Origin: Archangium sp.
GTDB taxonomy: Bacteria; Myxococcota; Myxococcia; Myxococcales; Myxococcaceae
DNA: 64,000 nt
Reading direction: 5' to 3'
NCBI GenBank assembly: GCA_047600485.1
Contig: JASGKS010000001.1
Location: 6,848,259-6,912,258, forward strand
How positions within the stretch are numbered: position 1 is the first letter of the stretch; each line of letters begins with the position of its first letter. Below the pieces are notes generated by a model that saw only the letters and a list, made by a program, of their open reading frames with translations, had not been told where the DNA came from and searched no databases. Positions 36,216 to 64,000 of this stretch are shown piece by piece. The position numbers and the translations under genes were made by a program.

Positions 36216-38054
36216 TCACTCTTCTTCTTCGAGGAGATTGACGCTCAGCGTCTTCGACTCGCCGCCGACGATCTTCACCGTGCGCTTGCGAGTCTCATTC
36301 AGCCCCACGTTGTTCAGCTCGACGAAGTGTGGGCCTTCGAAGAGCCCCTTCACCGTCACCGGCGTCTGTCCGTACGTCTTGCCGTCGACCTTCACGTAGG
36401 CCCACGGGTCGGCCTTCACGACCAGCGTGCCGCGGCTCAAGGTGTTGATGGTGGTGGTCGCGCCGGCTTCGAGGTTGAGCTTCACGGTCTGCTCGAGACC
36501 CGCGGCCTTGTTGATCAACCGCAGCGTCAACGCACCCGCCGGTCGCTTGAGGGTGAGCGGCGTCGCGCCGAGGTCGTCTTTTCCTTCGAACACGTGCGCG
36601 ACGATGGGCAGGCCTTCGAACACGATGGTCGCTTCACCCGCCGCCGCCTTGCCCGGACCGTCGGAGTTGGTGGTGTTGGTCGGCAGCACGATGACCGGCT
36701 GCTGCGAGAGCTTCCACACCTGGTAGCCGACGCCGCCACCGACACCGATGACGAGCATGCCGACGATGACGAGCCACAGGCCCGGGCCCCGCTTGGCGCC
36801 CGCGGGCTTCGGCTGCGGCGGCGGAGAATCGAAGCTCAGGTTCGGAGCAATCGCCGCGGAAGGAAGCGGTGCGGGCTGCTGGAGCAACGGCGGCTCACTC
36901 ACCTGCACCACCGGCAACGCATCGCGGCTGCGGCGCGCGGTCGGTTGCAACAACGCGCGCGTCTGCTCTTCGACCGTGGGAGGCGTCGAGTGCACCACCA
37001 CGCCTCCGCCCGTCGCGCTCACGCTCTGACCAGCCCATGTACCGCTCACCACCGAGCGCAACGCGGGGCCGGAGCGCTCTTCACTCGCTCCACTCGCCAG
37101 CTCGCTCAACGCGGTGCGCTCGGGGTCACCGGGCGGCCACAGCTTCTGCATGTAGTCGCCGACTTCTTCCGGGTCCGCCGCGCGACCGACTGCTGCCTCG
37201 ACAGCCTGCCGCAAGGCGCGCGCCGATTCGAAGCGCGTGTCGGGGTTCTTCTCGAGCGCCATCATCACCACGTTCGAGAGCGCGACTGAGACCTCGTTGG
37301 TGACTTCGTGCGGAGGCACGGGCCGCTCTTGAATCACCGCGAGCGAAACCGCCGCTTCGTTCGGCCCGGAGAAGGGACGCTTGCGGGTGAGCGCGCGGTA
37401 CATCACCACGCCGAGCGCGAAGAGGTCTGCGCGCCCGTCGATGGGATTGCCGAGCAGATACTCGGGGGCGATGAAGCCGTGCTTGCCCTTCACTGTGCCG
37501 GCCGTGGTGGCGCTCGCGAGCAACGCCGGAGTGGCCGCCTTCGCGATGCCGAAGTCGACGAGCCGCGTCTGACCACTCAGGCTGACGAGCAGGTTGTCGG
37601 GCGAGACGTCGCGGTGCACGAGCCCCAGGTGCGTGCCGTCGCGGTCGCAGAGCCGGTGCGCGTAGTCGAGGCCGCTCGCCGCATCCATCGCGATGCGGGC
37701 GATGATTTTTTCTCCGGGCGGGAGGTTCTTCTCTTTCGCGCGCTTCAGCATGCGCGAGAGCGAGAAGCCCTCGATGTATTCCATCGCCAGGTAGAGGACG
37801 CCGTTCTCGTGCCCGAGGTCGAAAATCTGAACGCAGTTGGGGTGGTTGAGCCGCGCCGCGAGTCGGCCTTCGTTGACGAACATGGTCACGAACGAAGGGT
37901 CGTTCGCGAGGTTGGGAAGAATGGTCTTCACGACCACCAGTTTTTCGAAACCGGCGATGCCGAGCGCGCGCGCGAGCCACACCTCGGCCATGCCGCCCGT
38001 GGCGAGGCGACCCAGCACCTCGTAACGCGTGAGCCGAGGCAGAGGAGTGGACAC
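36216..38054 (-). CDS. Ser/Thr protein kinase with a TM segment and a C-terminal PEGA domain
   Basis: Hanks motifs are present: LGRLATGGMAEVWLA, VKTI, HRDVSPDNLLV, DFGIAK, APE. The TM segment is LWLVIVGMLVIGVGGGV. The C-terminal PEGA is ..GTLVVKADPWAYVKVDGKTYGQTPV.. Confidence 0.85.
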   Translation of the reverse strand: MSTPLPRLTRYEVLGRLATGGMAEVWLARALGIAGFEKLVVVKTILPNLANDPSFVTMFVNEGRLAARLNHPNCVQIFDLGHENGVLYLAMEYIEGFSLSRMLKRAKEKNLPPGEKIIARIAMDAASGLDYAHRLCDRDGTHLGLVHRDVSPDNLLVSLSGQTRLVDFGIAKAATPALLASATTAGTVKGKHGFIAPEYLLGNPIDGRADLFALGVVMYRALTRKRPFSGPNEAAVSLAVIQERPVPPHEVTNEVSVALSNVVMMALEKNPDTRFESARALRQAVEAAVGRAADPEEVGDYMQKLWPPGDPERTALSELASGASEERSGPALRSVVSGTWAGQSVSATGGGVVVHSTPPTVEEQTRALLQPTARRSRDALPVVQVSEPPLLQQPAPLPSAAIAPNLSFDSPPPQPKPAGAKRGPGLWLVIVGMLVIGVGGGVGYQVWKLSQQPVIVLPTNTTNSDGPGKAAAGEATIVFEGLPIVAHVFEGKDDLGATPLTLKRPAGALTLRLINKAAGLEQTVKLNLEAGATTTINTLSRGTLVVKADPWAYVKVDGKTYGQTPVTVKGLFEGPHFVELNNVGLNETRKRTVKIVGGESKTLSVNLLEEEE

Positions 38055-44905: not shown

Positions 44906-46213
44906 CTACACCTTTCGCGCGGCCGCGCGACGACTCAGCGTCACCAACCCGCCGAGCGCCAACACGGCCAGCGAGAGATCGAAGCCCGACGCCGAGCACC
45001 CACTCGCGCCGCGGTCCGGCGAAGCGCTCAGCTTCAGCGATGACGTCGCCTCACGGTTGTTCGGGTACGAGCGGTCGGCGAACGCCAGGTGCGCCTGCAG
45101 CTGAATGTCGTACTCACCATCGACATCGGCCGTGAAGCTCGGCACCGAGCCGTCGAGGTACGCGTACTGCCAGTGGCGCGACGTGCTCACCACGCCCTCG
45201 GGGTTCACCACCGCCGCCTTCGAACCCTGCGGCCGCGACTTCACGGTCCACGCGTATTCGATGGCCGCGCCGTTGCGATTGGCGAACAGCGGCAGACGGA
45301 ACTTCTCACCAGCCTTCAGCACAATCGAACCACCGGCGTGCACGCGGAACGGCCCGTTCGGGTCGAGGCAGTCCTCTTTGTTGTTCGGGTCGACCACCAC
45401 GCAGTACTTCGCATCGCAGCCATCACCGAGGCCGTCGCCGTCGTCGTCGAGCTGCAAGCGATTGCGCAAGAGCGTGCAGTTGTCCGCCGTGTTGAGGATG
45501 CCGTCGTTGTCCATGTCGAGGTCGCACACGTCACCCATGCCGTCGAGGTCGGTGTCGAGCTGCGAGGCGTTCACGGTCGCGAGGCAGTTGTCGAAGGTGT
45601 CACTCACGTTGTCGCCGTCGACGTCGGCGTTGCAGCGCGCGTCGGCGATGGGCGTGTTGCCCGGGTTCGGCAACAGCGGGCACACGTCGAGCGTGTCGGG
45701 AATTCCGTCCGCGTCGTCGTCGGGGTTGCACACGTTGCCGAGCGAAGCGCTGGCGCTCGTCTTCAGCTGGTCGCGGTTCGGAATGCTCGGGCAGTTGTCG
45801 ACGAGGTTGTCGACGCCGTCTCCGTCCATGTCGGCGTCGCAGCCGTCTCCGCTGCCGTCGCCGTCGGTGTCGAGCTGACCGAAGTTCGAAGCGGCCGCGC
45901 AGTTGTCGCACGCGTCGCCGATGCCATCGCCATCACCGTCGAGCTGGTCGCGGTTGCTCGCGAACGCGCAGTTGTCGGCGTCGTCCGACTTGCCGTCACC
46001 GTCGGCGTCGTCGGTGTACGCGAGCGTCTTGCCGTCGTCCGTCATCGCGACCCACACCGAGCAACCGCAGCCACACCCGCAGCCGCAGCCGCCGCCCTCT
46101 TCCTTCGGCTTACCGCACATCGAGCCGAGACACTCCGGGTTGTCCTGGCTCTGCGCGAACGCGGGCAGCGCAGTGAGACAGGCGAGCGCAAGAACGATTG
46201 GGAGTGTCTTCAT
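44906..46213 (-). CDS. Secreted TSP3-repeat protein with a (GC)4 Cys run and a MYXO-CTERM-like C-terminal sorting signal
   Basis: Signal peptide MKTLPIVLALACLTALPAFA, then EEGGGCGCGCGCGCS. More than 8 TSP3 repeats follow (DDADGDGKSDDADNC, DGDGDGIGDACDNC, DTDGDGSGDGCD..). The tail is GCSASGFDLSLAVLALGGLVTLSRRAAARKV, i.e. Gly-Cys, a hydrophobic span, then an Arg-rich end. Confidence 0.75.
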   Translation of the reverse strand: MKTLPIVLALACLTALPAFAQSQDNPECLGSMCGKPKEEGGGCGCGCGCGCSVWVAMTDDGKTLAYTDDADGDGKSDDADNCAFASNRDQLDGDGDGIGDACDNCAAASNFGQLDTDGDGSGDGCDADMDGDGVDNLVDNCPSIPNRDQLKTSASASLGNVCNPDDDADGIPDTLDVCPLLPNPGNTPIADARCNADVDGDNVSDTFDNCLATVNASQLDTDLDGMGDVCDLDMDNDGILNTADNCTLLRNRLQLDDDGDGLGDGCDAKYCVVVDPNNKEDCLDPNGPFRVHAGGSIVLKAGEKFRLPLFANRNGAAIEYAWTVKSRPQGSKAAVVNPEGVVSTSRHWQYAYLDGSVPSFTADVDGEYDIQLQAHLAFADRSYPNNREATSSLKLSASPDRGASGCSASGFDLSLAVLALGGLVTLSRRAAARKV

Positions 46214-46281
46214 CGGGCTTCTCCTTGTGGTGAGCCCGACTCGTGAACTGTCGTACTTCCCGCGGTTCAACCGCTCGAAGA

Positions 46282-48123
46282 TCAGCTGGTTGCGTCAGGT
46301 CGCAGCAGCAATTTGAACTCCGCCTCGAGGGCGTCGGCGGTGAACGGCTTGTTGAGCCGGCCGGTGAGCGGCTGCGCGAGCAACGTCGCCAACAAATCTT
46401 CGGGAGCGAACCCCGAGCAGAACACCACCGGCTGCTCCGGGAGAATCTGACGAATGGCGAAGAACGTGTCGCGCGCCGAGAGCCCGGGCATCATCAAGTC
46501 GAGCACCACCAGCGCGGGTTTTTCTTTCGCGGTGGCGAGCAGCTCGAGCGCCTTCGCGCCGTCGCTGGCTTCCATCACCCGGTAGCCGAGGCGCTCCAGC
46601 AGCCGGCCCATCGAGCGACGCACGAGGTCTTCGTCGTCGATGACGAGAATCAACTCGTGCCCGCCGCCCGGAGCCGCCTGCGCCGCGCTCGACTCGACGC
46701 TCGGCGCGTCTCCCGCGACGACCGGGAAGCGCAGCTGAAAACGCGTGCCCTCACCGACTTCGCTGTGCACCGTGATGTCGCCGTCGTGACCGCGCACCGC
46801 CGAGTCGACGGTGGCGAGCCCGAGGCCCGTGCCGCGCCCGCGTTCCTTGGTGGTGAAGAACGGGTCGAAGATGTGCGCCATCACCTCGGGCGCCATGCCC
46901 ATGCCGGTGTCGATGACGTCGAGCCGCACGAGCCCGGGTTGATCATCGCTGGTGCGGAAGGTGAGCGTGCCGCCGTCGGGCATCGCGTCGCGCGCGTTGA
47001 GCGCGAGGTTGATGAACGCGTTCGAGAGCTGCGCGGAATCGGCGAGGAGCCGCGAGTGCTTCGCGTTGCGCTCGACCACCAGCGTGATGCGCCGGTCGAG
47101 CGTGCGCTGGAGAATGGTGAGCGCGTCGTCGAGCACGAAATGCAAATCGGTCGGCACGCGGTGCGAGTGGTCCTTGCGGCTGAACTGCAGCAACTGCCGC
47201 GTGAGGCTCGCGGCCTGTGACGCGGCGGACAAGATGGTGCCCACCGACTCCTGACCCGACGCGCTGAGCGGTTCCAGCTTGAGCAACTCGGACGCGGCCA
47301 TGATGGCGCCCAGCATGTTGTTGAAGTCGTGCGCCACGCCGCCGGCGAGCTGGCCCACCGCGTCCATTCGGCTGGAGTGACGCAGCCGTTCCTCGATGTG
47401 CCGTTCTTCGGTGACGTCCTGAATCGCGCCCGAGAGACGACGCGGCTCGCCTTCGGGAATGCCGTGCAGCCGCACGCGGCGTCGCTTGCCGCCCGGCCGC
47501 TCGAGCTCGACCTCGAGTCGAAACGGAGCGCCGCGCTGCAACCCCTGCTCGTGCGCGACCCGCACCGCCTCGCGGTGTTCGGGCACGAAGCGCGCGAGCG
47601 CACCGTCGAGCGTCGGAGTGAACTCGCGCTCACTCACGCCGAAGATGCGGAAGGTCTCCGAGGTCCACACGAGCGTCCTGGTGCGCCCGTCGTATTCCCA
47701 ACCGCCGACGTCGGTGACCGCCTGCGTTCGCTCGAGGAAACGCTTCTGGCGTTCCAGGTCTTTCACCACGCTCTGCTGCTCGGTGACGTCGAGCGCGAAG
47801 CCGGCCACGCCCATCACCTGACCGTCGGTCGAATAGACCGGGAACTTCGTCGAGAAGAACGTGCGCACGTCGGGCGGCACCTGCACTTCTTCGAAGCGCC
47901 GACTCGGCATGCGCGAGGCGAGCACCTCGCGGTCGTTGTTCACGAAGGCGTCAGCCTGTTCTTTGGCGAACAGCTCGTGGTCGGTCTTGCCCTCGACGGT
48001 CTCGCGCGAGGTGCGGAACGCGTTGACCCACGCGTTGCTGATCAACATGTACCGGCCATCGAGGTCCTTGATGAACGCGATGACCGGAGAGTTGCGGATG
48101 AATTGAGTCAGCAGGTCGAGCAC
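46282..48123 (-). CDS. Hybrid sensor histidine kinase: two PAS domains + HisKA + HATPase + C-terminal receiver
   Basis: H-box HDFNNMLGAI and the N/G boxes are present. The receiver is ILVIDDEDLVRRSMGRLLERLGYRVMEASDGAKALELL...VVLDLMMPG. Confidence 0.85.
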   Translation of the reverse strand: MLDLLTQFIRNSPVIAFIKDLDGRYMLISNAWVNAFRTSRETVEGKTDHELFAKEQADAFVNNDREVLASRMPSRRFEEVQVPPDVRTFFSTKFPVYSTDGQVMGVAGFALDVTEQQSVVKDLERQKRFLERTQAVTDVGGWEYDGRTRTLVWTSETFRIFGVSEREFTPTLDGALARFVPEHREAVRVAHEQGLQRGAPFRLEVELERPGGKRRRVRLHGIPEGEPRRLSGAIQDVTEERHIEERLRHSSRMDAVGQLAGGVAHDFNNMLGAIMAASELLKLEPLSASGQESVGTILSAASQAASLTRQLLQFSRKDHSHRVPTDLHFVLDDALTILQRTLDRRITLVVERNAKHSRLLADSAQLSNAFINLALNARDAMPDGGTLTFRTSDDQPGLVRLDVIDTGMGMAPEVMAHIFDPFFTTKERGRGTGLGLATVDSAVRGHDGDITVHSEVGEGTRFQLRFPVVAGDAPSVESSAAQAAPGGGHELILVIDDEDLVRRSMGRLLERLGYRVMEASDGAKALELLATAKEKPALVVLDLMMPGLSARDTFFAIRQILPEQPVVFCSGFAPEDLLATLLAQPLTGRLNKPFTADALEAEFKLLLRPDATS

Positions 48124-48136
48124 GGGCGCTGTCCTC

Positions 48137-49591
48137 TTACTCCACCCACGAGAGCGGGCTCGACGGCGTGTGCAGCCGCGTGACCGTCACGTCGCGCACG
48201 TGCTTCTGCCCGTCGGGCGTGACGACCTCGAGCTTGTGCGGCCCGACGCTCACTTCGAAGCGCCCCGGAGCAAACCCCACCGACTTGCCGTCGACCTTCA
48301 CCTCGCCGCGCAGCAGGGCTTCGCCGCCGATGCTGATCAGTCCCGTGCCGGTCTCGACCACGACCGCGGGAATCACCTTCGTCGGGACCTTCGGTCGCAC
48401 GACACCTTCAGTGGGCGCCGGAGTGGACGCGTCGGGCACGAACGACTTCTCGGGAGCCGGCACTTCCGCTTCCACTTTCGGTTGCGTGTCGACGACAGGC
48501 TTGAGCACCACCGGAGGTGGAGGCAACGGCTGCGGCTCACTGAAGAGCACCGACACGCCGACGCCCGTCACGCCCGCCAGACCGACGACGAGAAATGGAA
48601 CCCACGCGCGACGCGTCGGCTTCGGCGAGCTCGCGACGACCGGCTTCGACGGCACCATCGGCGTCGCCTGCTCGATGAACGCGTCACGCGACGGAGCGAC
48701 CGACGCGACCCACTCCGCCAACGCCTTGCGCGGCTCGGCACCGGCGGCTTCTCTGACCGCGATGGCCGAGCACGCGAGCGCGAACGCCTCGGCGCTCTCG
48801 TAGCGTTCGGCTTTGTTCCGCCGCGTGGCGCGCGCAATTACGTCGCGCAGCTCGGGGTGCACGTCGAACGACAGCGTGAGTTCCTGGCCCGCGAGCAAGT
48901 CGACCAGCGCGTTCTCGTCGCGCAGCGCGCTCTCTCCGGTGAGCAGCGCGTGCAGCACGCAGCCGAGCGCGAACACGTCGGTGCGCGCGTCGAGCGAGCC
49001 GCGAATCGCCTGCTCCGGAGCCATGTACGCCGGCTTCCCGCGCGCCACGCCACCGACGGTCTTCTCGGTGCGCCCTTCAGCGAGCGCGATGCCGAAGTCG
49101 GAAAGCTTCACGTCACCGCCGCGCGAGACGAGGACGTTCTGTGGGCTCACGTCGCGGTGCACGATGTTGAGTGGCTTGCCGTCGTCCGACGTCGCGGCGT
49201 GCGCGAAGTGCAGCGCGTGACCGACCGTCGCGCACACGTGCAGCGCGAGCGCGACCGGCATGGGTTTGCTCATCGCCCGGCCCCACTTCGCGAGGCGCCA
49301 CACGTCGAAGCCGTCGATCAACTCCAGCACCTGAAACGCGCGGCCCGCTTCGACGCCGAAGTCGAGAATCGAGACGATGCCCGCGTGGTGCAGGCGGCTG
49401 GTGATGCGCGCCTCGTCGAGGAACATGCGCTCGAACGCGCCACCATCTTCTTCCTGCCGCGCGAAGAGCTGCTTGATGGCGACGCGCCGTGTGAAGCCCG
49501 CGTCACCGTGCGCGACCGCGAGCCACACCTCGGCCATGCCGCCTTCCGCGAGACGGCGCTGCAGCTCGTAGCGGCCAGCGAGGCGCGTCAT
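48137..49591 (-). CDS. Ser/Thr protein kinase with a TM segment and a C-terminal PEGA domain
   Basis: Kinase motifs LAEGGMAEVWLA, HRDVSPQNVLV, DFGIA, APEQ. The TM segment is WVPFLVVGLAGVTGVGVSVL and the PEGA is ..LLRGEVKVDGKSVGFAPGRFEVSVGPHKLEV.. Confidence 0.85.
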   Translation of the reverse strand: MTRLAGRYELQRRLAEGGMAEVWLAVAHGDAGFTRRVAIKQLFARQEEDGGAFERMFLDEARITSRLHHAGIVSILDFGVEAGRAFQVLELIDGFDVWRLAKWGRAMSKPMPVALALHVCATVGHALHFAHAATSDDGKPLNIVHRDVSPQNVLVSRGGDVKLSDFGIALAEGRTEKTVGGVARGKPAYMAPEQAIRGSLDARTDVFALGCVLHALLTGESALRDENALVDLLAGQELTLSFDVHPELRDVIARATRRNKAERYESAEAFALACSAIAVREAAGAEPRKALAEWVASVAPSRDAFIEQATPMVPSKPVVASSPKPTRRAWVPFLVVGLAGVTGVGVSVLFSEPQPLPPPPVVLKPVVDTQPKVEAEVPAPEKSFVPDASTPAPTEGVVRPKVPTKVIPAVVVETGTGLISIGGEALLRGEVKVDGKSVGFAPGRFEVSVGPHKLEVVTPDGQKHVRDVTVTRLHTPSSPLSWVE

Positions 49592-49609: not shown

Positions 49610-51196
49610 CTACGCGAACAAGTCTTTCACGACATCGGTCAGCTGCTTCGGCGCGCGCACCGGGTGGTAGTGCACCGTCAACGCCGAGGCGAAGTCCTTC
49701 GCGGTCGCCGGCCGCTGCGTGCGTTCCTTCTCGAGCGCCGAGCGCACCAGCGCTTCGAGCGGCCCCGAAATCTCGTCGCGCCGCTCGCGCACCGAGACCT
49801 CTTTCTTCGCGCGAATCGCTTCCGTCAATTCTTCGAGCGTGTTGCCGACGAAGGGCTGCTCGAGGGTGAGCAGCTCGTAGAGCGTCACGCCCGCGGCCCA
49901 CAAATCGACCGACGGCGTGTGCGAGCCCATCAGCGCTTCCGGAGCGAGGTACGTCGGCCGCCCTTCCTTCAACGCGCGGCGCGCATCGCCCGAGCGGCGC
50001 GCGGTGCCGAAGTCGCCGAGCTTGATGGCTCCCGACTTCGCGATGAAGACGTTGTGCGGAGAGACGTCGCCGTGCACCAGTTCCCACGGCGCGCCGGTCT
50101 CGTCTTTCACGCCGTGCACCGCCGAGAGCGCGTCGAGCAGCACCTTCACCAGGTAGCAGGCGACGTCGATGGGCAGCTTCTTCTTGCGAGAGCGCGCGCG
50201 GCGGAGAATTTGCGAGAGGTCGTGGCCCTCGACGAGCTCCATCGCGAGGTAGTGCTGACCGTCGACCACGCCCGAGTCGACGAGCTTCACGATGTTGGCG
50301 TGCTTGAGCAGCGAGAGCGTCCTCGCTTCTTGCTCGAAGGCCTTCACCGCCTTCGCGTCACTCGCGCGGCGAGCGTGGAGCCGCTTGAGCGCCACCTGGT
50401 CGCCCTTGCGCGGCCCCTCGAAACCGCGCGCGGCGTGCACCACACTGGTGCCTCCGGTGCCGAGCAGCGTCATCACTTCCCACGGGCCGATGCGCTCGGG
50501 GCCTCCGTCACCTTTCGCAGCGGGAGGCGCGAGCGCGTCGACCTTTTCCTTCACGCCGGGCTTGGAGTCGGAAGAGAACTGCACCGACACGCCCTGCTCG
50601 GAGACGTTCACCACCGTCGCCGGCGCAGTCACTTCGCCGGTCGGCAGCCGAATCTCGACCTCGACCTTTTCGCGCAGCACCGGCGGCGGCGTCAGCGTGC
50701 GAAGCAGCGCGCCACCGGCCGACACGTTCTGCACCACCGCTTCGATTTTCTTGTCGCCGACCAGCACCGTGGCGGGCGCGATGACGGGCAGACGCGGCTC
50801 GGAGCGACGCTCGGGACTCTGCGCGAGCACCTCGTCGAGCACCTTGAGCACTTCGTCGGGCAACAGGCCGAGCCGCTGCACGCCGCACTGCTCGAAGCGG
50901 GACAGGAACTCGGCGCGCGCGCGGAAGTCGTCGCTGAGTTCCCACACCTTTCCGCCTGCGTGCTCACCTGCGTTGGTGATGGCGGCCTGGGTGCCCTCAC
51001 TGAAACGGTCTTCGCGGAAGCGGAGAATGACGAAGAGCTCCGGGCCGCCGAGGCGCAGACCGAGGTCGACCTGCAACAACGCCTCATCGAGGGCAGACAG
51101 CCAGATGTCGACGCAGCGGATGGCGCTCTGCCGGCGGTGACCTGATGCGTTCTCGAAGACGATCGCGCGCTCGACCGTCTCAACTCCGGCGCTCAC
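49610..51196 (-). CDS. PilZ-domain / Ser/Thr-kinase fusion protein
   Basis: The central PilZ signature is ERRSEPRLPV...QNVSAGGALLRT (RxxxR ... N.S.GG). It is followed by a Hanks kinase (LGTGGTSVVHAA, HGDVSPHNVFI, DFGTAR, APE). Confidence 0.7.
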   Translation of the reverse strand: MSAGVETVERAIVFENASGHRRQSAIRCVDIWLSALDEALLQVDLGLRLGGPELFVILRFREDRFSEGTQAAITNAGEHAGGKVWELSDDFRARAEFLSRFEQCGVQRLGLLPDEVLKVLDEVLAQSPERRSEPRLPVIAPATVLVGDKKIEAVVQNVSAGGALLRTLTPPPVLREKVEVEIRLPTGEVTAPATVVNVSEQGVSVQFSSDSKPGVKEKVDALAPPAAKGDGGPERIGPWEVMTLLGTGGTSVVHAARGFEGPRKGDQVALKRLHARRASDAKAVKAFEQEARTLSLLKHANIVKLVDSGVVDGQHYLAMELVEGHDLSQILRRARSRKKKLPIDVACYLVKVLLDALSAVHGVKDETGAPWELVHGDVSPHNVFIAKSGAIKLGDFGTARRSGDARRALKEGRPTYLAPEALMGSHTPSVDLWAAGVTLYELLTLEQPFVGNTLEELTEAIRAKKEVSVRERRDEISGPLEALVRSALEKERTQRPATAKDFASALTVHYHPVRAPKQLTDVVKDLFA

Positions 51197-51258
51197 ATCG
51201 ACAAGTGTAGCCCGGAAACACGCGCTCGCCTTTCACCTCGTGCGATGATGCGTGCGCG

Positions 51259-52371
51259 ATGTCCGGTGATCGTCGTTTTACCGTGGCTCAACTCCGCGCC
51301 CACGAAGACGCGAACGAGTTGAACTTGCGACCGCCGGACGGAATTTCACGCGCATTCAACGTGGCCATTGGTGACCCGCAGGCCTCGCTGGCGATGTTCC
51401 TGCGGGTACTCGATTTGAACGGGCTCCTCGGAGAGAACGGCCGAATTCGCCCGGAAGTGGGCCTCGTCTCGCTGGGAGATCATTTCGACTGGGGCCGGCC
51501 CGAAGACCGCGAGAGCGCGACCGAAGACGGCACGCGCATTCTGGCGTGGCTCGCCGCGCACCCGCCTGATCAGGTGCAGATCATCGTGGGCAACCACGAC
51601 CTCGTTCGCGTGGGAGAGCTCTCGAGCTTCACCGACGCGCAATACGTGGAAGCACGGCAGCTCGCCGAGATGGCCATCAGCCCCAACCGCGTCGCCGAGT
51701 TCAAGGAGCGCTACCCGATGCTCGCCAGCCCGGCGGTCATCTCGCGCGACTACTCGTGCTTCGACACACGGCAGCGTTCGCTCGTCTCGCGGTTGTTGAA
51801 GAAGAAGCGGCTGCGGCTGGCGGTTGCTCCGTCGAGTGACCTGCTGCTGGTGCACGCCGGAGTGACCACCGAAGACCTCGAGGTGTTCGGCCCGCTGCCG
51901 GTCTACGACGCGCCGACCATCGCCGCGACGCTCAACAACTTCCTCGATGCGCGCGTGGCGAAGTGGAAGGGCGATGGGCCGCTCGACCTCGCGCCGCTGC
52001 ACGAGCTCGGTTCGGCCGAAGGTGGAGAAGCGCGCGGAATTCTCGCGCACCGCCCGGCGAACCCCGAGTTGAAGAAGACCGACCGCGCCGCGCGACGCTA
52101 CGACCCGCGGCTGTTGCCCAGCGGCGTGACGCAGGTCATCGGCCACATCAACGACAAGAAGTGCCGCGAGCTGATGGGAAGCTGGGCCGAGACGCCGAAG
52201 CACGAATTCGGTGTGCTGCGCGGCCTGAAGCTCGGCATGAAGCCGAAGTACCACGCGCGCTGCGATGACGAAGACCGCCTGGTGTTCGTCGACGGCGCGA
52301 TGAACATGGTGGCGCCGTTCGAGTACGAGCTGTTCGACCTGGAATTGCGGCAGCGGTTGATTCTGCGCTGA
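51259..52371 (+). CDS. Calcineurin-like metallophosphoesterase; PPP-like Ser/Thr phosphatase candidate
   Basis: The motifs GDHFDWGRP (GDxxDRG-like) and GNHD are in PPP order. 370 aa. Confidence 0.55.
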   Translation: MSGDRRFTVAQLRAHEDANELNLRPPDGISRAFNVAIGDPQASLAMFLRVLDLNGLLGENGRIRPEVGLVSLGDHFDWGRPEDRESATEDGTRILAWLAAHPPDQVQIIVGNHDLVRVGELSSFTDAQYVEARQLAEMAISPNRVAEFKERYPMLASPAVISRDYSCFDTRQRSLVSRLLKKKRLRLAVAPSSDLLLVHAGVTTEDLEVFGPLPVYDAPTIAATLNNFLDARVAKWKGDGPLDLAPLHELGSAEGGEARGILAHRPANPELKKTDRAARRYDPRLLPSGVTQVIGHINDKKCRELMGSWAETPKHEFGVLRGLKLGMKPKYHARCDDEDRLVFVDGAMNMVAPFEYELFDLELRQRLILR

Positions 52372-55300
52372 CTACTTCGCGACCGGCTTCAACGACTGCC
52401 GCTGCAGGAAGCGCACGAAGAGCTGCACCACCTCGGGGCGGAAGCGATGCGCGACCTTGGACCCGATGAGCTCGACGATTTGGTCCTTGGGCATCGCCTC
52501 GCGTGAAGCGGTCGCGGTGCTGAGCGACTCGTACGCCCGCGCGAGCGCCACGATGCTGCCCATCAAGCCAATCGACGCCATCGCGCCGAGGCTGCCGGGC
52601 CGTTCGCGCGTGCCCCAGTCGAGGTCCTGCTCGACGAGAATCGACGACCACGACGCCGCGGCTGGAGCATCACCCAGCTTCACGAACGGGAAGCGCACCG
52701 AAGTCTTCCGCGCAGCCGCGATGGCTTGTTGATCAGCCTCGGTCAGCTTCCCCGCGCGCTCGAGCATCTCGTCCTTCAAGTCGAAGTTGCCCACCTCGCT
52801 GAAGAACGACACCTGCGCCAAATCCATCAGCTGTTGATGCTCGAGGCCCAGCTCTCCGCCGAACATCACCGCGAGCATCATCACGTTCGCCGCGTGGAAC
52901 ACCTCGGCTTCGGCGTTGCGCTTGCGCGGCGTGAGGCCCGCGAAACGCACCATGCGTGAGTGCGCGGCCGTCGCCACCTCGTGGAAGACCTGCCGCACGT
53001 CGGGCATCTCGGCGCGCGGGTTCATCTTCCGCTCCGTCATCCACGCGCGGAACCCGAGCACCAGGTCGACGTACCGAATCATCGCTTCGCGCGAGAAGTC
53101 GGTCATCGGCGACGGGCGGATGTCGGGCTTCGCCGGCTTCGGCTGCTGGTTGTTCGCCGACACCAGCGTGATGGACGAGGTCTCGATGCCTTCGGCGTTC
53201 GCGCCCGCAGCGAGCCAGCGCACCAGCAATTCCAATTCAGCGCGCGGAGGCTGGCGCGTGAACGTGAAGCCCGCCACGCCGCGGCTCTCGAACGCCTTCT
53301 TCACGCGCTCGACCGCGCCGTCGTTGCCTTCGCCGACGGGCGCTCCATTCACGGTGAGCGAAGGAGAGGTCGTCACGCTCGCCTGCGCGCCCGCCGGCAG
53401 CAGCGCCGCGAGCGTCTTGCTGATGCGGGTGAACGCGGTGTCGAACAATTCGCTGTCGAGCTCGACGAGGCGCGAGGCCTGAGAGAGCGCGTGCAGGTCC
53501 ATCAACACGTCGCGCCACGCGGGCGGGTTGCGGTCCCACCTCCGAAGCTCGCCGACGTGCGACGTGGTCTCGGCAATCAACGCCGCCGAGCGCAGATGCC
53601 GGTCGGCCGCCGCGCGCACCGAATCGCCCTGCGACGAATCGTCGTTCACGCGCTGCATGAGCGAGGCCGCGTCGTCGCCCTTCATCACCGCGAGGCCTTC
53701 GAGCACCTCGACCTTGCGGCCTTCCGACTTGGCGCGACCGAGCAGCGGGCGCTGTGCGAGCTCGCTGGCCATCATCGACAGCGCCTCGGGCGAGTTCGAC
53801 TGGCCGATGGAAATCCACAGCGCGCGGCGTTCCTGGTCGGTGCGGGTGCTCGCGTTGTTGGGCTCGACCACGCCCTTGAGCGCCGCCAACACGCGCTCGG
53901 GGAAGTGCTTTCCGAGGAGCTGAATCGAGTGCAGCCGCGTCTCCGATTCCTCGTCGGTGACGCCCTGGCACACCAGCTTGTACGCGTCGTCCGAGCCCGC
54001 GCGCGCGAGGCCGGTCAACACCTCGCGACGGCGTGCGGGGTCGAGCCGGGCGAGCAGCTCACGCACGATGCGCGAGCGGTCTCCGACGCGGCCCTTCTCG
54101 AGGCAGTACACCAATTCCATGATGCGCCGCGGCCGCTTGGGCGCGAGCAAGTCGATGAACGGCTGCGGGCTGAGCGCGCACAACGACGCGAGGCCGGGGA
54201 GCAGCGCATCACGCGACGCAGCGAGGTCGATGTTCTCGAACAGCGAAATCCACGTCGGGCCGAACGCGGGGCCAAAGAAGGCGATGAGCTTGCCGAGCCC
54301 TTCAGCATCGGCCGGCTTGTTCTCGCGCAACCGCAGCGAGATGCGACGCGCGTTCTCGGTGGTCGCGAACTGCGAGATGGCGAAGTCGTACGCCCACTTG
54401 TGCAGCGCGTCGGCCTCGCCGTGGAACTTGAGGCGCTCGAGCAACGTCGCGAGCGTGCCCCACGCTTCCGCCATGAAGAGACCGTCGATGGCGCCGGCCA
54501 GCCGCTCGGAGACGAGTGATTCGGGCTCGACGTACTTGAGCAGCCGCGCGGCGTGGTCGGCGTAGCGCACCAGCAGGTGCAGCCCTTCGTCGCGCGCGAG
54601 TTCCTTGCGCACGCTCTCGAGCTCGACGGCGGTGCCCAGACCCGGGCCCGTGTCGTAGAGCCGCATGGTCGTCGCGTCGGCCATCACCACCGCGGCGCGA
54701 ACTTCAGGCGTGCTCGCGACTGGATTTGGCGGTTGCTGCTGCGCGGGAACGTGCGCGGCGAAACCGCCCGAGCGCGACGGCGGCGGAGCGAGCGGCAAGC
54801 CCTGACCGGGACCCGGCGTCGGCGGGCGTGAAATCGGCAAGCCGCGGCCCGGCCCCGGCGTGTGCGGAGAAATCGCGGGCGGCGGTGGCGCGCTCGCGAC
54901 GGACATTGGCAGCCCGCGGCCCGGCCCCGGCGTGTTGAGCGGCAGACCCTTGCCCGGCCCCGGCGTGAGCGACGACGGCGCGTGCTGAGGGAACGAGCCG
55001 GAGCTGCGCGACTTCGTGCCCGGCGTCAGCGGACCCGCGGTGCCGCGCGCGTTGAACGCTTCGATGGGCACAGCCGCGGCAGTCGAGCCGACGGTGATGC
55101 GCATGCCGCCGCCATCATCGTCATCGTCGTCTTTCTTCGCAGCGGGCGGCGGCGGAGGCGGCGGAAGCTTCTGCGTCGACGGGCGCGCGACGGCCGCGGT
55201 GGCGATGGGCGTGAGCCCCGACATGTCGACGTCGGAGAAGAATTGATCGAACAGCTCCTCGCTGTGCTTCTTCGCGGCGGCGCTCTGCAGCGGAGGCACG

Positions 55301-56451
55301 ACGGGCTTCGCGGCAACGGGCGTGGGCGGTGAAACAGCCGGCGGCGGCGGCAGCGGCTGCGTGGTGCGGGCCATCGGCGCACCGAACGCGGCGAACGGGT
55401 CACCTCCCGCAGCGGGAACTCCGCTGGGCGGAGAGATGCGTGAAGGCGAGAGCTGCTTGGCGACGTACGGCGTGGCGACGGACGCGGGCGTGGGCGACGT
55501 GCCGGGCTTGTTCGGAGAAGAGGCCGGCTCTTCCTGGTACTGCGTGGCGAGCGAGGCGAGCTGGCGAGTGCCGACGCGCACGCCGCTCCCGGCGACGAAT
55601 TCTTCGAGGGCCGAAGCGAGCTCGCGGCAATTCTGGAAGCGAACGTTGAGGTTCTTCGCCATCGCCTTGGCGACGATGTTGGCGTACTCGCGCGGCACGT
55701 CAGGAACGCGGCGCGTGAGCGGCACCGGGTCGGTCTTGATGATGTCGGCGATGAGCTGTTGATCAGGTACCTGCTCGTACGGCCGCGTGCCGGCAGCGAA
55801 CTCGTAGAGGATGACGCCGAGCGCGTAGACGTCGGCGCGCAGGTCGGCCTCTCCGATGATCTGCTCGGGAGGCATGTACGCAATCTTCCCCTTCACCGTG
55901 CCGTCGAAGGTCGCGGCCTGCGCACCGGTCTTCGCGATGCCGAAGTCGACGACCTTCACCGCGCCGTTGCGCGCAATGAGCATGTTGTCGGTGCTCACGT
56001 CGCAGTGAATGAGGCCCATCGGCTTGCCCGACGCGTCGGCGAACTCGTGCACGTACGCGAGGCCTTCACAGGCTTCTTCGATGACGCGCGCGCCGACGGC
56101 GAGTGGAATTCGGCGGTCGGGCGAGGCGCGCAGAATCGAGCGCAGGTTCGGACCGTCGACGAATTCCATCGCGAGGAAGTACGTGCCGTTCACTTCACCG
56201 AAGTCGAAGATTTGAACGACTGCGGGGTGCGCGAACTGCGCGGCGATGCGCGCTTCCTGCAGGAACATCGAGACGAACGATTCGTCCTTCGCGAGCGTCG
56301 GCAGAATGCGTTTGATGACGAGTGATTTCTCGAACCCGCCGGGTCCGATGACTTTCGCCAGAAACACCTCGGCCATGCCGCCCGTGGCCAGCTTCCGAAC
56401 CAGGTGGTACCGACCGAGCTGTTCCCCTTCGCTCGCCATCGCCGGGCGCAT
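52372..56451 (-). CDS. Large Ser/Thr protein kinase (1359 aa): N-terminal kinase, Pro-rich linker with tandem TPGPG(R/K/Q)GLP motifs, ~800-aa helical C-terminal domain of unknown function
   Basis: Kinase motifs LATGGMAEVFLA, HCDVSTDNMLI, DFGIAK, PPE. The linker contains LTPGPGKGLPLN/TPGPGRGLPMS/..TPGPGRGLPIS/..TPGPGQGLPLA. The stop abuts the phosphatase stop (52371/52372). Confidence 0.8.
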   Translation of the reverse strand: MRPAMASEGEQLGRYHLVRKLATGGMAEVFLAKVIGPGGFEKSLVIKRILPTLAKDESFVSMFLQEARIAAQFAHPAVVQIFDFGEVNGTYFLAMEFVDGPNLRSILRASPDRRIPLAVGARVIEEACEGLAYVHEFADASGKPMGLIHCDVSTDNMLIARNGAVKVVDFGIAKTGAQAATFDGTVKGKIAYMPPEQIIGEADLRADVYALGVILYEFAAGTRPYEQVPDQQLIADIIKTDPVPLTRRVPDVPREYANIVAKAMAKNLNVRFQNCRELASALEEFVAGSGVRVGTRQLASLATQYQEEPASSPNKPGTSPTPASVATPYVAKQLSPSRISPPSGVPAAGGDPFAAFGAPMARTTQPLPPPPAVSPPTPVAAKPVVPPLQSAAAKKHSEELFDQFFSDVDMSGLTPIATAAVARPSTQKLPPPPPPPAAKKDDDDDDGGGMRITVGSTAAAVPIEAFNARGTAGPLTPGTKSRSSGSFPQHAPSSLTPGPGKGLPLNTPGPGRGLPMSVASAPPPPAISPHTPGPGRGLPISRPPTPGPGQGLPLAPPPSRSGGFAAHVPAQQQPPNPVASTPEVRAAVVMADATTMRLYDTGPGLGTAVELESVRKELARDEGLHLLVRYADHAARLLKYVEPESLVSERLAGAIDGLFMAEAWGTLATLLERLKFHGEADALHKWAYDFAISQFATTENARRISLRLRENKPADAEGLGKLIAFFGPAFGPTWISLFENIDLAASRDALLPGLASLCALSPQPFIDLLAPKRPRRIMELVYCLEKGRVGDRSRIVRELLARLDPARRREVLTGLARAGSDDAYKLVCQGVTDEESETRLHSIQLLGKHFPERVLAALKGVVEPNNASTRTDQERRALWISIGQSNSPEALSMMASELAQRPLLGRAKSEGRKVEVLEGLAVMKGDDAASLMQRVNDDSSQGDSVRAAADRHLRSAALIAETTSHVGELRRWDRNPPAWRDVLMDLHALSQASRLVELDSELFDTAFTRISKTLAALLPAGAQASVTTSPSLTVNGAPVGEGNDGAVERVKKAFESRGVAGFTFTRQPPRAELELLVRWLAAGANAEGIETSSITLVSANNQQPKPAKPDIRPSPMTDFSREAMIRYVDLVLGFRAWMTERKMNPRAEMPDVRQVFHEVATAAHSRMVRFAGLTPRKRNAEAEVFHAANVMMLAVMFGGELGLEHQQLMDLAQVSFFSEVGNFDLKDEMLERAGKLTEADQQAIAAARKTSVRFPFVKLGDAPAAASWSSILVEQDLDWGTRERPGSLGAMASIGLMGSIVALARAYESLSTATASREAMPKDQIVELIGSKVAHRFRPEVVQLFVRFLQRQSLKPVAK

Positions 56452-61319: not shown

Positions 61320-62627
61320 TCATTCGCCGCGGAGCTTGTGCCGCTGCAAGAGCTCGATGAGATGCGAGCGATCCATCTTCGCGTGACGTGACGCCGCGCT
61401 CACGTTGCCGCCCGTCACCTCGAGCAGCTTCTTCAAGTAGTGCACCTCGAACTTGTTCAGCACCTCGGCGCGCGCGTCCTTGTACGTGCGCTCGGGCCCG
61501 GGCATCGCGTTCGGGTCGGCGGTCGAAGCGCTCGTCGCATCGAGCTCCGGCGGCTCGCCCATCGCCAGCGTCGCCTCGACGAGGTTGCGCAGCTCACGCA
61601 CGTTGCCCGGCCAGGGATGCGCGCGGAGCGCAGTGAGCGCGTCCTTGTTGAACAGCGACTCCAGCTTCGCCTCGCTGCCCGCCTCGCGCAGGAAGTGAGT
61701 GATGAGCAGCTCGAGGTCTTCCGCGCGCGAACGCAGCGGCGGCACGTCGAGCTTCACCACCGCGAGCCGGAAGAACAGGTCGAGACGGAACTGCCCGCTG
61801 TTCACCGCCGCGCGCAGGTCGCGATGCGTGGCCGACACCACGCGCACGTCGACGTTCAATTCTTCCGAGCCGCCGACGCGACGAAAGCGCCGACGCTCGA
61901 GCACGCCCAGCAACGACGCCTGCAGCGTCGGCGACAGCTCACCAATCTCGTCGAGAAACACCGTGCCGCCGTTCGCGCGCTCGAAGGCGCCGGCGTGGCG
62001 GCGGTCTGCTCCCGTGAACGCGCCGCGCTCGTGACCGAACAGCTCACTCGCCACGAGCCCCGGAGAGAGCGACGCGCAGTCGACGGTGACGAACGGCTTA
62101 CCCGCGCGCGCGCCGCGCTCGTGCAGCGCCATGGCGATGAGCTCTTTGCCCGTACCCGACTCGCCCTGCAGCAGCACCGCACTGTCGCTGCGAGCCGCCT
62201 TGTCGATGCGCGCGAGCAAGGTGCGCATCACCGGCGACTGGCCCTTCAACGGCCCGAGTGAATCGTGCTCCGAGAGCTCGACGCTGCCGGTCTTGCCGCT
62301 GCCGACCTCGAGCTGCGTGTGCCCCAACTGCAACACGGTGCCCGGAGGCACGAGCGCTTCGGTCAACGCGAGGCCATGCGCGAGCGTGCCGTTGGTCGAG
62401 CTCAGGTCGCGCACCGCCACCTTGTCGCCACGGCGCGAAAGCTCGACGTGAAAACGCGAGACCGACGGGTCAGTGAGCTTGAGGGTGTTGCCTTCCGCGA
62501 TGCCGACGGTGAGCGCCTCGGTCACGTCACTCACTGCGAGGCCCAGGTCTGGTCCTGCGACGACACGCACCGACAACGTGCGCACCGGCAACCCCACGAC
62601 CGCGATGGGCAGCGTCCCTTCACTCAT
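61320..62627 (-). CDS. Sigma-54-dependent transcriptional activator with an N-terminal FHA domain (FHA + AAA+ sigma-54 interaction domain + Fis-type HTH)
   Basis: The start is MSEGTLPIAVVGL (ATG at 62627). The FHA is ..VSRFHVELSRRGDKVAVRDLSSTNGT... The AAA+ module has GESGTGKE, GAFTGA, and ESELFGHERGAFTGA followed by a GAFERANGGTVFLDEI block. The C-terminus carries an HTH. The upstream 70 codons of the track ORF are rejected. Confidence 0.85.
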   Translation of the reverse strand: MSEGTLPIAVVGLPVRTLSVRVVAGPDLGLAVSDVTEALTVGIAEGNTLKLTDPSVSRFHVELSRRGDKVAVRDLSSTNGTLAHGLALTEALVPPGTVLQLGHTQLEVGSGKTGSVELSEHDSLGPLKGQSPVMRTLLARIDKAARSDSAVLLQGESGTGKELIAMALHERGARAGKPFVTVDCASLSPGLVASELFGHERGAFTGADRRHAGAFERANGGTVFLDEIGELSPTLQASLLGVLERRRFRRVGGSEELNVDVRVVSATHRDLRAAVNSGQFRLDLFFRLAVVKLDVPPLRSRAEDLELLITHFLREAGSEAKLESLFNKDALTALRAHPWPGNVRELRNLVEATLAMGEPPELDATSASTADPNAMPGPERTYKDARAEVLNKFEVHYLKKLLEVTGGNVSAASRHAKMDRSHLIELLQRHKLRGE

Positions 62628-62662
62628 GGGTGCGCGTTGTACTTCACCCTCACGGCTCCGGG

Positions 62663-62701
62663 CTGTCGGCTGTTCCCGACAGCTGTCGGCTCGACCCGAC
62701 A
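62663..62701. promoter_or_regulatory. Two tandem 20-bp palindromes (CTGTCGG-N6-CCGACAG and CTGTCGG-N5-CCCGACA); candidate enhancer-binding-protein site (UAS) or operator in the divergent region between the sigma-54 activator and the YVTN lipoprotein gene
   Basis: The full sequence is GGCTGTCGGCTGTTCCCGACAGCTGTCGGCTCGACCCGACAAC. The central CCGACAGCTGTCGG is itself a perfect 14-bp palindrome. Confidence 0.4.
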
Positions 62702-62733
62702 ACCTTCGGGGCCTGATCCAACGGAAGGGCCGC

Positions 62734-62747
62734 GGCGCGCCGTTTGC
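62734..62747 (+). promoter_or_regulatory. Weak sigma-54 (-24/-12) promoter candidate CGGCGCG-ccgt-TTGCT (GG-N10-GC spacing) about 15 nt upstream of the lipoprotein ATG
   Basis: The spacing is exact. The -24 element matches 4 of 6 positions of TGGCAC, and the -12 TTGC is present. It is co-located with the FHA enhancer-binding protein and the tandem palindromes. Confidence 0.25.
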
Positions 62748-62761
62748 TGACGGGTCCCGGC

Positions 62762-64000
62762 ATGAACTTCCAAGCCAAAACAATCCTGGGGGCAGTCGTC
62801 GTAGCGATGCTGAGCGCGTGTCCGCCCAACCCGACACCCGATGGCGGCGCAGGCGGAGGCTCGGGCGGCGGCGGAGGCGTGACTGGCGGTGGCGGCGGCG
62901 GAGGCGATGACGCCGGCACCGGCGGCGGCGGTGGCGCTGGTGGTGGAAGCGGCGGCGGCTCGGGTGGTGGAAGCGGTGGCGGTAGCGGCGGAGGCATGGG
63001 TGGCGGCATGGGCGGCGGTATGGGTGGCAGTGGCGGCAGCGGCGGTGGCGGCGGCGTGACCGGCCCCATCCTCTCGCGCGTCTCGCGCTCGACTCCGGTG
63101 GACATCACCGAGAACGACACCCTCATCGCAATGGTGAACCAGGACAGCAACTCGCTGTCGTTCTTCTCGTCGGCGACGAAGACGCGCACCGCGTCGGTGA
63201 ACTTCGCGAACGACTCGATGCCGGTGTCGGTCGTCCTTCACCCTGACGGCACGACGGCGTTCGTCGCGCTGCGCCGCTCCGGTGAGCTGGCGAAGGTGAC
63301 GGCCATCGACACCATCAACCCGGTCGTCTCGGGCACGCGTGCGACGGTCGGCGCGGAGCCGACGGGCGTGGCGCTCACTCCGAGCGGCGCGGTCGCCGTG
63401 GTCGCGAACTTCAACGAAGGCACGCTGAGCTTCGTCGACACCGCGAGCATGAGCGTGATGGGCACGGCGAACGTCGGCGGCAACCCGCGCGCGCTGGTCA
63501 TCAGCAACGACGGCGACACCGACGACTTCGACGAGAAAATCTACGTGACGCAGTTCTACGGCGAGGCCACCGCTGAGATGAGCGACAGCGGCCGCGTCGG
63601 AAAGGTGCAGGTGGTCGACGTCAACACCCGCTCCGTCACCGCCACCATTTCACTGCAGCCCATCGCGGACACCGGCTTCAACGTCGCCCTCCCCGACGGC
63701 GGGCCGGGAACCAACGTGGGCTGCGGCATCAACCAGCTGTTCTCCATCACGCTCAACAACGGCAAGGGCTACGTGACGAGCGTGTGCGCCGCGCCGCAGG
63801 GCCCGGTGTTCAAGTTCACCAACGTGTTCGCCGCGGTGTCGGTGTTCGACACGGCGACCAACACCGAAGACACGGGCATCGCGGGCACGGCGGCGTTGAG
63901 CAAGCTCGTCGCGGCGCAGGGCACCTCGACCTCGAACCTCCTCGGCGTTCCCATCGGCATCGACTTCAAGCCGAACAGCAACGTGGCGTACGTCATCTCG
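62762..64000 (+). CDS. Lipoprotein with a long Gly-rich linker and YVTN-family beta-propeller repeats; 3'-partial at window end
   Basis: MNFQAKTILGAVVVAMLSACPPNP, then about 70 aa of GGGSGGG/GGGMGGG, then repeats such as ..VVLHPDGTTAFVALRRSGELAKV.., ..VALTPSGAVAVVANFNEGTLSFVD.. and ..RALVISNDGD... There is no stop in the window, so it is absent from the ORF track. Confidence 0.65.
   Translation, partial: MNFQAKTILGAVVVAMLSACPPNPTPDGGAGGGSGGGGGVTGGGGGGGDDAGTGGGGGAGGGSGGGSGGGSGGGSGGGMGGGMGGGMGGSGGSGGGGGVTGPILSRVSRSTPVDITENDTLIAMVNQDSNSLSFFSSATKTRTASVNFANDSMPVSVVLHPDGTTAFVALRRSGELAKVTAIDTINPVVSGTRATVGAEPTGVALTPSGAVAVVANFNEGTLSFVDTASMSVMGTANVGGNPRALVISNDGDTDDFDEKIYVTQFYGEATAEMSDSGRVGKVQVVDVNTRSVTATISLQPIADTGFNVALPDGGPGTNVGCGINQLFSITLNNGKGYVTSVCAAPQGPVFKFTNVFAAVSVFDTATNTEDTGIAGTAALSKLVAAQGTSTSNLLGVPIGIDFKPNSNVAYVIS

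Follow-up and report, generated by a model that had tools for sequence, protein, structure and literature searches.

A PilZ-Containing Hanks-Type Kinase and Its Divergent Phosphoesterase Neighbor in Archangium

The Gene and Its Product

We have analyzed a stretch of 64,000 nucleotides from Archangium sp. (assembly GCA_047600485.1, contig JASGKS010000001.1, positions 6,848,259 to 6,912,258 of the forward strand), hereafter called the window, in which positions are counted from the first letter. The minus strand of this window carries, at 49610..51196, a gene combining a PilZ domain with a Hanks-type Ser/Thr protein kinase, hereafter abbreviated as PilZ-kinase. In the list of open reading frames (ORFs) the gene begins with GTG, ends with a stop codon at 49610-49612 and encodes a protein of 528 amino acids (aa). 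Its G+C content at third codon positions is 0.87, versus 0.72 for the 493-aa shadow ORF of the plus strand, in a genome with 67% GC; the minus frame is therefore the coding one. At NCBI the product has a counterpart of 100% identity, labeled 'protein kinase [Archangium sp.]', which comes from a 9.4-Mb contig of a metagenome-assembled genome (MAG).

The domain architecture of this protein is certain: an N-terminal domain, hereafter NTD, is followed by the PilZ domain and then by the kinase. The initial annotation of the locus had described a direct fusion of PilZ to the N-terminal side of a complete kinase, and this order stands; the conserved NTD at aa 7-124 had been overlooked, however, so that the protein has three domains and not two.

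The PilZ Domain

The PilZ domain occupies aa 129-220 (50537..50812, minus strand). Of this segment the Pfam model PF07238 recognizes aa 129-212, scoring 52.6 bits where the gathering cutoff is 22.5 (E=6.3e-14). The domain contains both motifs that are characteristic of receptors for c-di-GMP, the cyclic dimer of GMP. The RRxxxR motif, here RRSEPR, lies at aa 130-135 (50792..50809, minus strand) inside the linker between NTD and PilZ, while the second motif, here NVSAGG, lies at aa 157-162 (50711..50728, minus strand) and has the [D/N]hSxxG form, the refined definition with a hydrophobic residue h introduced by Galperin & Chou (10.1101/814665). Our alignment comprises 48 orthologs with 45-88% identity to the query and a mean column identity of 57%. 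Residues R130, R131, R135, S159 and G162 are invariant in 48/48 of these proteins; position 157 is N in 40 and D in 8, and position 158 is exclusively L, V or I. Both the score of the hidden Markov model (HMM) and this invariance indicate that the motifs are not coincidental, and their chance occurrence, which had been envisaged as a possible objection to the presence of a PilZ domain, is ruled out on the same grounds.

A full-length model was built with AlphaFold2 on the 48-sequence alignment. In this model the PilZ segment forms a six-stranded barrel (strands 136-146, 149-158, 162-167, 177-184, 187-199 and 202-207) that is followed by a helix at 209-220, with a predicted local distance difference test score (pLDDT) of ~80-92. 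Six strands plus a C-terminal helix correspond to the canonical definition of the PilZ domain (Galperin & Chou, 10.1101/814665). The best match of the segment in a sequence search of the PDB, the PilZ domain of cellulose synthase 4i86, is weak (E=0.19) and has both motifs in register. Judging from its sequence, the PilZ-kinase is likely to bind c-di-GMP.

The Kinase Domain

The Hanks-type kinase domain extends from aa 239 to aa 528 (49613..50482, minus strand) and matches the Pfam model Pkinase (PF00069) over aa 240-498 with E=4.6e-38 and 131.6 bits; the HMM search that had been proposed as a check of the fusion thus supports both of its parts. Structurally, the model of aa 239-528 superposes on PknB of Mycobacterium tuberculosis (5u94) with a Foldseek E value of 3.7e-19 and a target-normalized template modeling score of 0.92. 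Residues G246, G248, K271, E290, H375, D377, N382, D395-F396-G397 and P419 are invariant among the 48 orthologs, in which position 420 is either E or D; the residues inspected cover the Gly-rich loop, the VAIK Lys, the alpha-C Glu, HxD...N, DFG and APE. By its residues, then, the domain is catalytically complete, in agreement with the initial annotation.

The middle residue of the HxD motif, between H375 and D377, is G in the window protein (HGD) and G, C, A or N across the 48 orthologs. Because it is never R, the family is consistently of the non-RD type, i.e. it lacks the Arg of 'HRD'. The control of non-RD kinases does not usually depend on phosphorylation of the activation loop, and such kinases are often constitutively competent.

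The N-Terminal Domain and the Overall Model

The NTD (aa 7-124; 50825..51178, minus strand) has the secondary structure beta-alpha-beta-beta-alpha-beta-alpha-beta-alpha and resembles ferredoxin- and ACT-like folds. No Pfam or NCBIfam model matches residues 7-124, yet the domain is conserved to about the same degree as the remainder of the protein: the orthologs share on average 58% identity with the query in the NTD, compared with 52% in PilZ and 63% in the kinase, and the residues of the NTD that are invariant in the 48 orthologs include T7, E9, R10, A11, F14, D44, R94 and F97. When a profile of the NTD was compared with 1.84 billion cluster representatives, just 46 proteins reached E<=1e-3, and nearly all of these have the match at their N-terminus. 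Among the 44 members of this superfamily that were scanned with Pfam, PilZ was found in 25, a receiver domain in 18 and a kinase in 12. The resulting architectures are NTD-PilZ-kinase, NTD-PilZ-PilZ-receiver, NTD-PilZ-receiver-kinase and, in a few cases, NTD-kinase without detectable PilZ. Several of the shorter members, with 235-298 aa, lack any further Pfam match; these may be fragments.

Wherever PilZ was matched in the long members that we examined (18/18), the NTD precedes it, and the pair of motifs RxxxR...[D/N]xSxxG is intact in 10/14 of the kinase-bearing representatives of the superfamily. With the NTD before PilZ throughout and with varying outputs, the superfamily shows a pattern typical of sensor modules that are reused. 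The NTD-PilZ pair thus behaves as a sensor cassette that can be joined to different outputs, either kinase or receiver.

The two connections within the protein differ in their constancy. Most orthologs have a linker of 11 residues between NTD and PilZ, which carries RRxxxR and whose overall range is 11-22. The tether between PilZ and kinase, aa 221-238 (50483..50536, minus strand), appears to be flexible, with pLDDT <50 at aa 224-231; among orthologs it measures 14-69 aa (median 32.5) and is rich in Pro, Ala and Thr. The full-length model has a mean pLDDT of 88.8 and a predicted template modeling score (pTM) of 0.59. The combination of a fixed linker, a variable tether and a low pTM suggests that the sensor is a geometrically fixed unit to which the kinase is flexibly leashed. 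Such an arrangement, as far as the model goes, would favor docking and undocking, or recruitment, over rigid helical coupling.

The long and flexible tether also fits an alternative in which c-di-GMP binds to the sensor and leaves catalysis unchanged, the effect being one of localization or scaffolding that brings a constitutively active kinase to its partner or substrate. A tether of 14-69 aa with pLDDT <50 argues against rigid allosteric coupling, and the frequent constitutive competence of non-RD kinases points the same way. Nevertheless, the same tether is compatible with docking-type autoinhibition in cis, so that this alternative overlaps with the switching of kinase output that we favor below; as a separate explanation we consider it decidedly unlikely.

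Distribution and Genomic Neighborhood

Full-length relatives of the PilZ-kinase number ~50, with 42-88% identity, and all of them come from metagenomes or MAGs labeled as Archangium sp., Myxococcaceae or Myxococcales. The best 120 matches include no full-length protein of cultured Myxococcus or Stigmatella; the top matches from these two genera are kinase-only and have ~300 aa. For one such kinase-only relative, in Myxococcus sp. SDU36, the upstream gene was considered as a possible split-off sensor and rejected, for it encodes an unrelated tetratricopeptide repeat protein without similarity.

Drawing on GTDB species representatives, we compared the gene order around the PilZ-kinase at 18 ortholog loci, the orthologs having 43-62% identity. 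A phosphoesterase gene, which in the window lies on the plus strand at 51259..52371, is adjacent to and divergent from the PilZ-kinase gene at 15/18 of these loci, with 64-75% identity. One MAG (JAUXRX01) contains two paralogous NTD-PilZ-kinase genes, at the loci L006 and L007, with the phosphoesterase neighbor at L006 only.

The initial annotation had placed the PilZ-kinase at the head of a long operon. Within the window this is a fair description, since three tightly packed genes follow on the minus strand with gaps of 11-18 nt along 44906..49591. According to ORFs and Pfam, they encode a kinase with a weak PEGA match (48137..49591), a PAS-PAS hybrid histidine kinase (46282..48123) and a protein with thrombospondin type-3 repeats (44906..46270). 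However, this downstream set recurs only loosely, at the locus L005, where a gene for a 511-aa protein is inserted after the PilZ-kinase, and the other 17 ortholog loci do not have it; a conserved operon headed by the PilZ-kinase is ruled out by the comparison of the 18 loci. Matches resembling terminators occur in the region at background level (9 found vs 7.4 expected). What is conserved is the divergent pairing of PilZ-kinase and phosphoesterase, and the position at the head of an operon is a local arrangement.

The two genes of the pair are separated by an intergenic region of 62 bp (51197..51258), whereas the spacer measures 32-281 bp in the other loci of a 13-locus comparison. Two conserved boxes are recognizable in most of these 13 loci and degenerate in some: CATCATCGCAC at 51240-51250 (minus-strand reading), beside the start of the phosphoesterase, and GCTACACT at 51204-51211 (minus-strand reading), which ends 7 nt before the GTG of the kinase. 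On the basis of these conserved boxes, TACACT ~7 nt before GTG would fit the -10 element of a leaderless transcript, and the two boxes together suggest back-to-back promoters with leaderless mRNAs. A scan of the intergenic region 51197..51258 for consensus sigma-70 promoters found nothing.

The partner gene encodes a protein of 370 aa, an atypical metallophosphoesterase. Its Pfam Metallophos score is 20.0 bits, under the cutoff of 21.5. In 40 members of the family we find the conserved motifs GDPQA, GDHFDWG, GNHD, VHAG and GHIN, of which GDPQA and GHIN are invariant; they follow a layout like that of metallophosphoesterases, in which the canonical motifs include GDxHG and GHxH. The protein has Gln in motif I and Asn at the second His of GHxH, which we take to replace two positions usually held by His metal ligands. 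It had been annotated as a phosphatase resembling those of the PPP family, and its adjacency on the opposite strand and its superfamily are borne out; the PPP signature GDxHG/GDxVDRG/GNHE is not, the Arg of GDxVDRG being absent. On this sequence evidence the protein belongs to the metallophosphoesterase superfamily, while membership in PPP is unsupported. Searches of the PDB with the single sequence and with a profile of 40 members gave no match. The NCBI entry for this gene reads 'transcriptional regulator' and starts 34 codons later, and the longer form aligns with its orthologs over the full length.

Paralogs of the phosphoesterase with 48-50% identity are found in a different conserved context that contains AMP-ligase, Exo_endo_phos, TfuA and YcaO genes and no kinase. 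One MAG carries both copies. It follows that just one subclade is coupled to the PilZ-kinase, and the notion that the phosphoesterase family is generally associated with kinases is ruled out by these paralogs.

Upstream of the PilZ-kinase and beyond the phosphoesterase, at 52372..56451 on the minus strand, lies a gene for a protein of 1359 aa that is found at 8/18 of the ortholog loci. Pfam and PDB sequence matches resolve this protein into a Hanks kinase, a Pro-rich linker, HEAT repeats and a degenerate HD-GYP domain, so that it constitutes a second kinase of the neighborhood fused to a domain related to cyclic dinucleotides. The HD-GYP-like domain comprises the C-terminal ~245 residues (~52375..53106) and matches the HD-GYP protein 4mcw (E=5.9e-5), as well as the c-di-GMP phosphodiesterase 4r8z and the cyclic GMP-AMP phosphodiesterase 5z7c (both E=0.003). 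Its catalytic motifs (HD, HHE and GYP) are replaced, with SEVGN instead of HDIGK and VEQDLDWGTRERP at the position of HHERWDGTGYP (aligned VEQDLDW-GTRERP). This degenerate state, including the replacement of the catalytic His, is common to the window copy and 8 orthologs. It is probably an inactive and perhaps a receptor-like domain.

The vicinity of this HD-GYP domain, which points to a cyclic-dinucleotide theme, bears upon the substrate of the phosphoesterase. Instead of acting on proteins, the enzyme might act on nucleotides, for instance as a phosphodiesterase for cyclic (di)nucleotides or pGpG that would shape the signal perceived by PilZ. Compared with the GNHE of PPP enzymes, the GNHD motif found here is the more typical one for metallophosphoesterases outside the PPP family, and both the absence of the Arg of GDxVDRG and the presence of paralogs without a nearby kinase would be in keeping with such a role. 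Yet no homology to a characterized nucleotide phosphodiesterase emerges from the PDB sequence searches, even with the profile, and the presumed replacement of two usual His metal ligands leaves the chemistry uncertain either way. We regard a nucleotide substrate as a real alternative, albeit a rather unlikely one.

Other genes of the window deserve a brief description. Counting the PilZ-kinase, four Hanks-type kinases are encoded on the minus strand within ~20 kb, the others being those at 36216..38054, 48137..49591 and 52372..56451. The kinase at 36216..38054 has a clear C-terminal PEGA domain, while the PEGA match in 48137..49591 is below threshold. The gene at 61320..62837 (minus strand), ~10 kb upstream of the PilZ-kinase, encodes a sigma-54 enhancer-binding protein with an FHA domain; FHA domains read phospho-threonine, and the local Ser/Thr kinases could conceivably act on this protein as a downstream target. 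An ORF of 1659 aa at 31174..36153 (minus strand) shows 34 matches to the cysteine-rich repeat of plant 'Stigma-specific STIG1-like' proteins (PF04885, E=5.6e-140), and such massive repetition of a STIG1-like domain is unusual for a bacterium. Calcium-binding thrombospondin type-3 repeats are present in two proteins encoded on the minus strand, at 44906..46270 and 29990..32272, one of which also has an OmpA domain.

A Possible Mechanism

We consider it moderately probable that all these features belong together as follows: the product is a soluble, compact three-domain signaling protein in which an NTD-PilZ sensor for c-di-GMP switches a tethered non-RD Hanks kinase. By analogy with receptors of the YcgR layout, the NTD and PilZ, with the short RRxxxR linker between them, would form a two-domain c-di-GMP sensor, and the flexible tether, whose length varies, would connect this sensor with a kinase that appears catalytically competent. 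Binding of c-di-GMP at the site formed by RRxxxR and [N]hSxxG may re-orient the NTD against PilZ; the double-Arg form of RRxxxR, as we assume from other PilZ proteins, suggests that the ligand is an intercalated dimer of c-di-GMP. The changed sensor might then dock differently on the kinase, or recruit a partner or substrate, and thereby switch the output of Ser/Thr phosphorylation. The divergent phosphoesterase would be a conserved functional partner in this scheme, plausibly the opposing phosphatase. Direct control of kinase output by c-di-GMP is plausible.

Several points weigh against this interpretation. With a pTM of 0.59, the model does not support a specific docking interface between sensor and kinase. 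A scan of window genes revealed none of the GGDEF or EAL type among those covered, and the source organism is known from MAGs only. The role of the phosphoesterase as an opposing protein phosphatase is plausible and weakly founded, because its paralogs lie in a context free of kinases and because PPP-specific motifs are missing. The protein PlpA has intact PilZ motifs and no reported binding of c-di-GMP (PMC8316039), so that the integrity of the motifs is by itself no proof of binding. Finally, two natural variants have lost the PilZ barrel: in one (P0035, encoded at L011 8001..9425, 475 aa) the deletion begins just after RRxxxR and joins the NTD to the kinase, and the other (P0245, 481 aa) likewise retains NTD and kinase. 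Some lineages can thus do without PilZ.

PlpA and these variants lend themselves to a different explanation, according to which PilZ would be an adaptor domain for protein-protein interaction that does not bind c-di-GMP, the kinase being regulated otherwise, e.g. by a small ligand of the NTD. The ACT- or ferredoxin-like fold of the NTD, with its own invariant charged residues E9, R10, D44 and R94, would suit such a ligand. Considering the conservation of the PilZ motifs described above, we find a PilZ domain without affinity for c-di-GMP unlikely.

The sensor-switched kinase could be part of a larger system. In its broadest form, the proposal would be that NTD-PilZ is a previously unrecognized c-di-GMP cassette, restricted to Myxococcota, that in this family gates a non-RD Hanks kinase directly, and that the PilZ-kinase, its co-inherited phosphoesterase and the kinase with the degenerate HD-GYP domain together form a dedicated node translating the level of cyclic dinucleotides into Ser/Thr phosphorylation. 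To this full extent the proposal seems improbable to us.

Comparison with Known Systems

The nearest precedent comes from Myxococcus xanthus, where the Ser/Thr kinase Pkn1 (MXAN_1467) likewise includes a PilZ domain; deletion of Pkn1 reduces sporulation (PMC8316039), which shows that fusions of kinase and PilZ can be of biological importance. In Pkn1 the kinase is N-terminal and the PilZ domain C-terminal, without c-di-GMP motifs and predicted not to bind the dinucleotide (PMC8844925). The two proteins are alike in joining a Hanks-type kinase and PilZ in one polypeptide of a myxobacterium, but the window protein has the reverse domain order, intact and invariant motifs and an additional NTD; judged by this architecture, it is not of the Pkn1 type, and orthology with Pkn1 appears unlikely. 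The statement of the initial annotation that fusions of PilZ and kinase are not commonly characterized needs to be tempered accordingly. It holds in so far as Pkn1 has the opposite order and a degenerate PilZ domain, but the precedent exists (PMC8316039, PMC8844925), and fusions of kinase and PilZ are therefore not new as such. What is new here is the reverse order of domains, the intact and invariant motifs, a companion domain that is not a barrel, and the conserved partner genes.

The arrangement of the sensor recalls the PilZN-PilZ proteins of the YcgR type (and the PilZN3-7 variants), with an N-terminal companion, RxxxR in the linker and a canonical PilZ domain. In receptors of the YcgR type the dinucleotide binds at the interdomain linker. 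PilZN-type domains have been described or predicted as PilZ-like beta-barrels (10.1101/814665). In contrast, the companion in the window protein is an alpha/beta domain of the ferredoxin/ACT-like kind, and the output fused to the module is an enzyme; no match to YcgR, YcgR_2 or PilZN was found in the window protein with Pfam at E<=1.

PixA, a PilZ-receiver protein of M. xanthus that binds c-di-GMP, resembles the window protein in having a motif-intact PilZ domain on the N-terminal side of a phospho-signaling domain, and the NTD-PilZ-PilZ-receiver members of the NTD superfamily come close to the PixA type. However, PixA has a receiver as output and no Hanks kinase, and its PilZ domain lies at the extreme N-terminus, with Arg9 in RxxxR; it is therefore without a companion domain. 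In the references of PMC8316039, SgmT of M. xanthus is listed as a histidine kinase that is a receptor for c-di-GMP. It shares with the scheme proposed here the direct action of c-di-GMP on a protein kinase and differs in using histidine-kinase chemistry, not that of the Hanks type. Its sensor is a GGDEF-type domain and not PilZ.

The known effectors of c-di-GMP act for the most part on the machines of motility, on polysaccharide synthases, on transcription factors and on histidine kinases. No Hanks-type Ser/Thr kinase regulated by c-di-GMP is described in the open-access literature we searched, nor is there, in the searchable literature, an example of a biochemically characterized node leading from a cyclic dinucleotide to Ser/Thr phosphorylation. 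Myxobacteria rely heavily on both c-di-GMP and Ser/Thr kinase signaling. With its invariant motif, active-looking kinase, compact soluble protein, which should lend itself to heterologous expression, and conserved partner enzyme, the PilZ-kinase family offers a clean test case. If binding and regulation both prove true, two major signaling systems of bacteria would be linked directly, and the NTD would add to the PilZ repertoire a companion domain that, unlike those of the YcgR type, is not a barrel.

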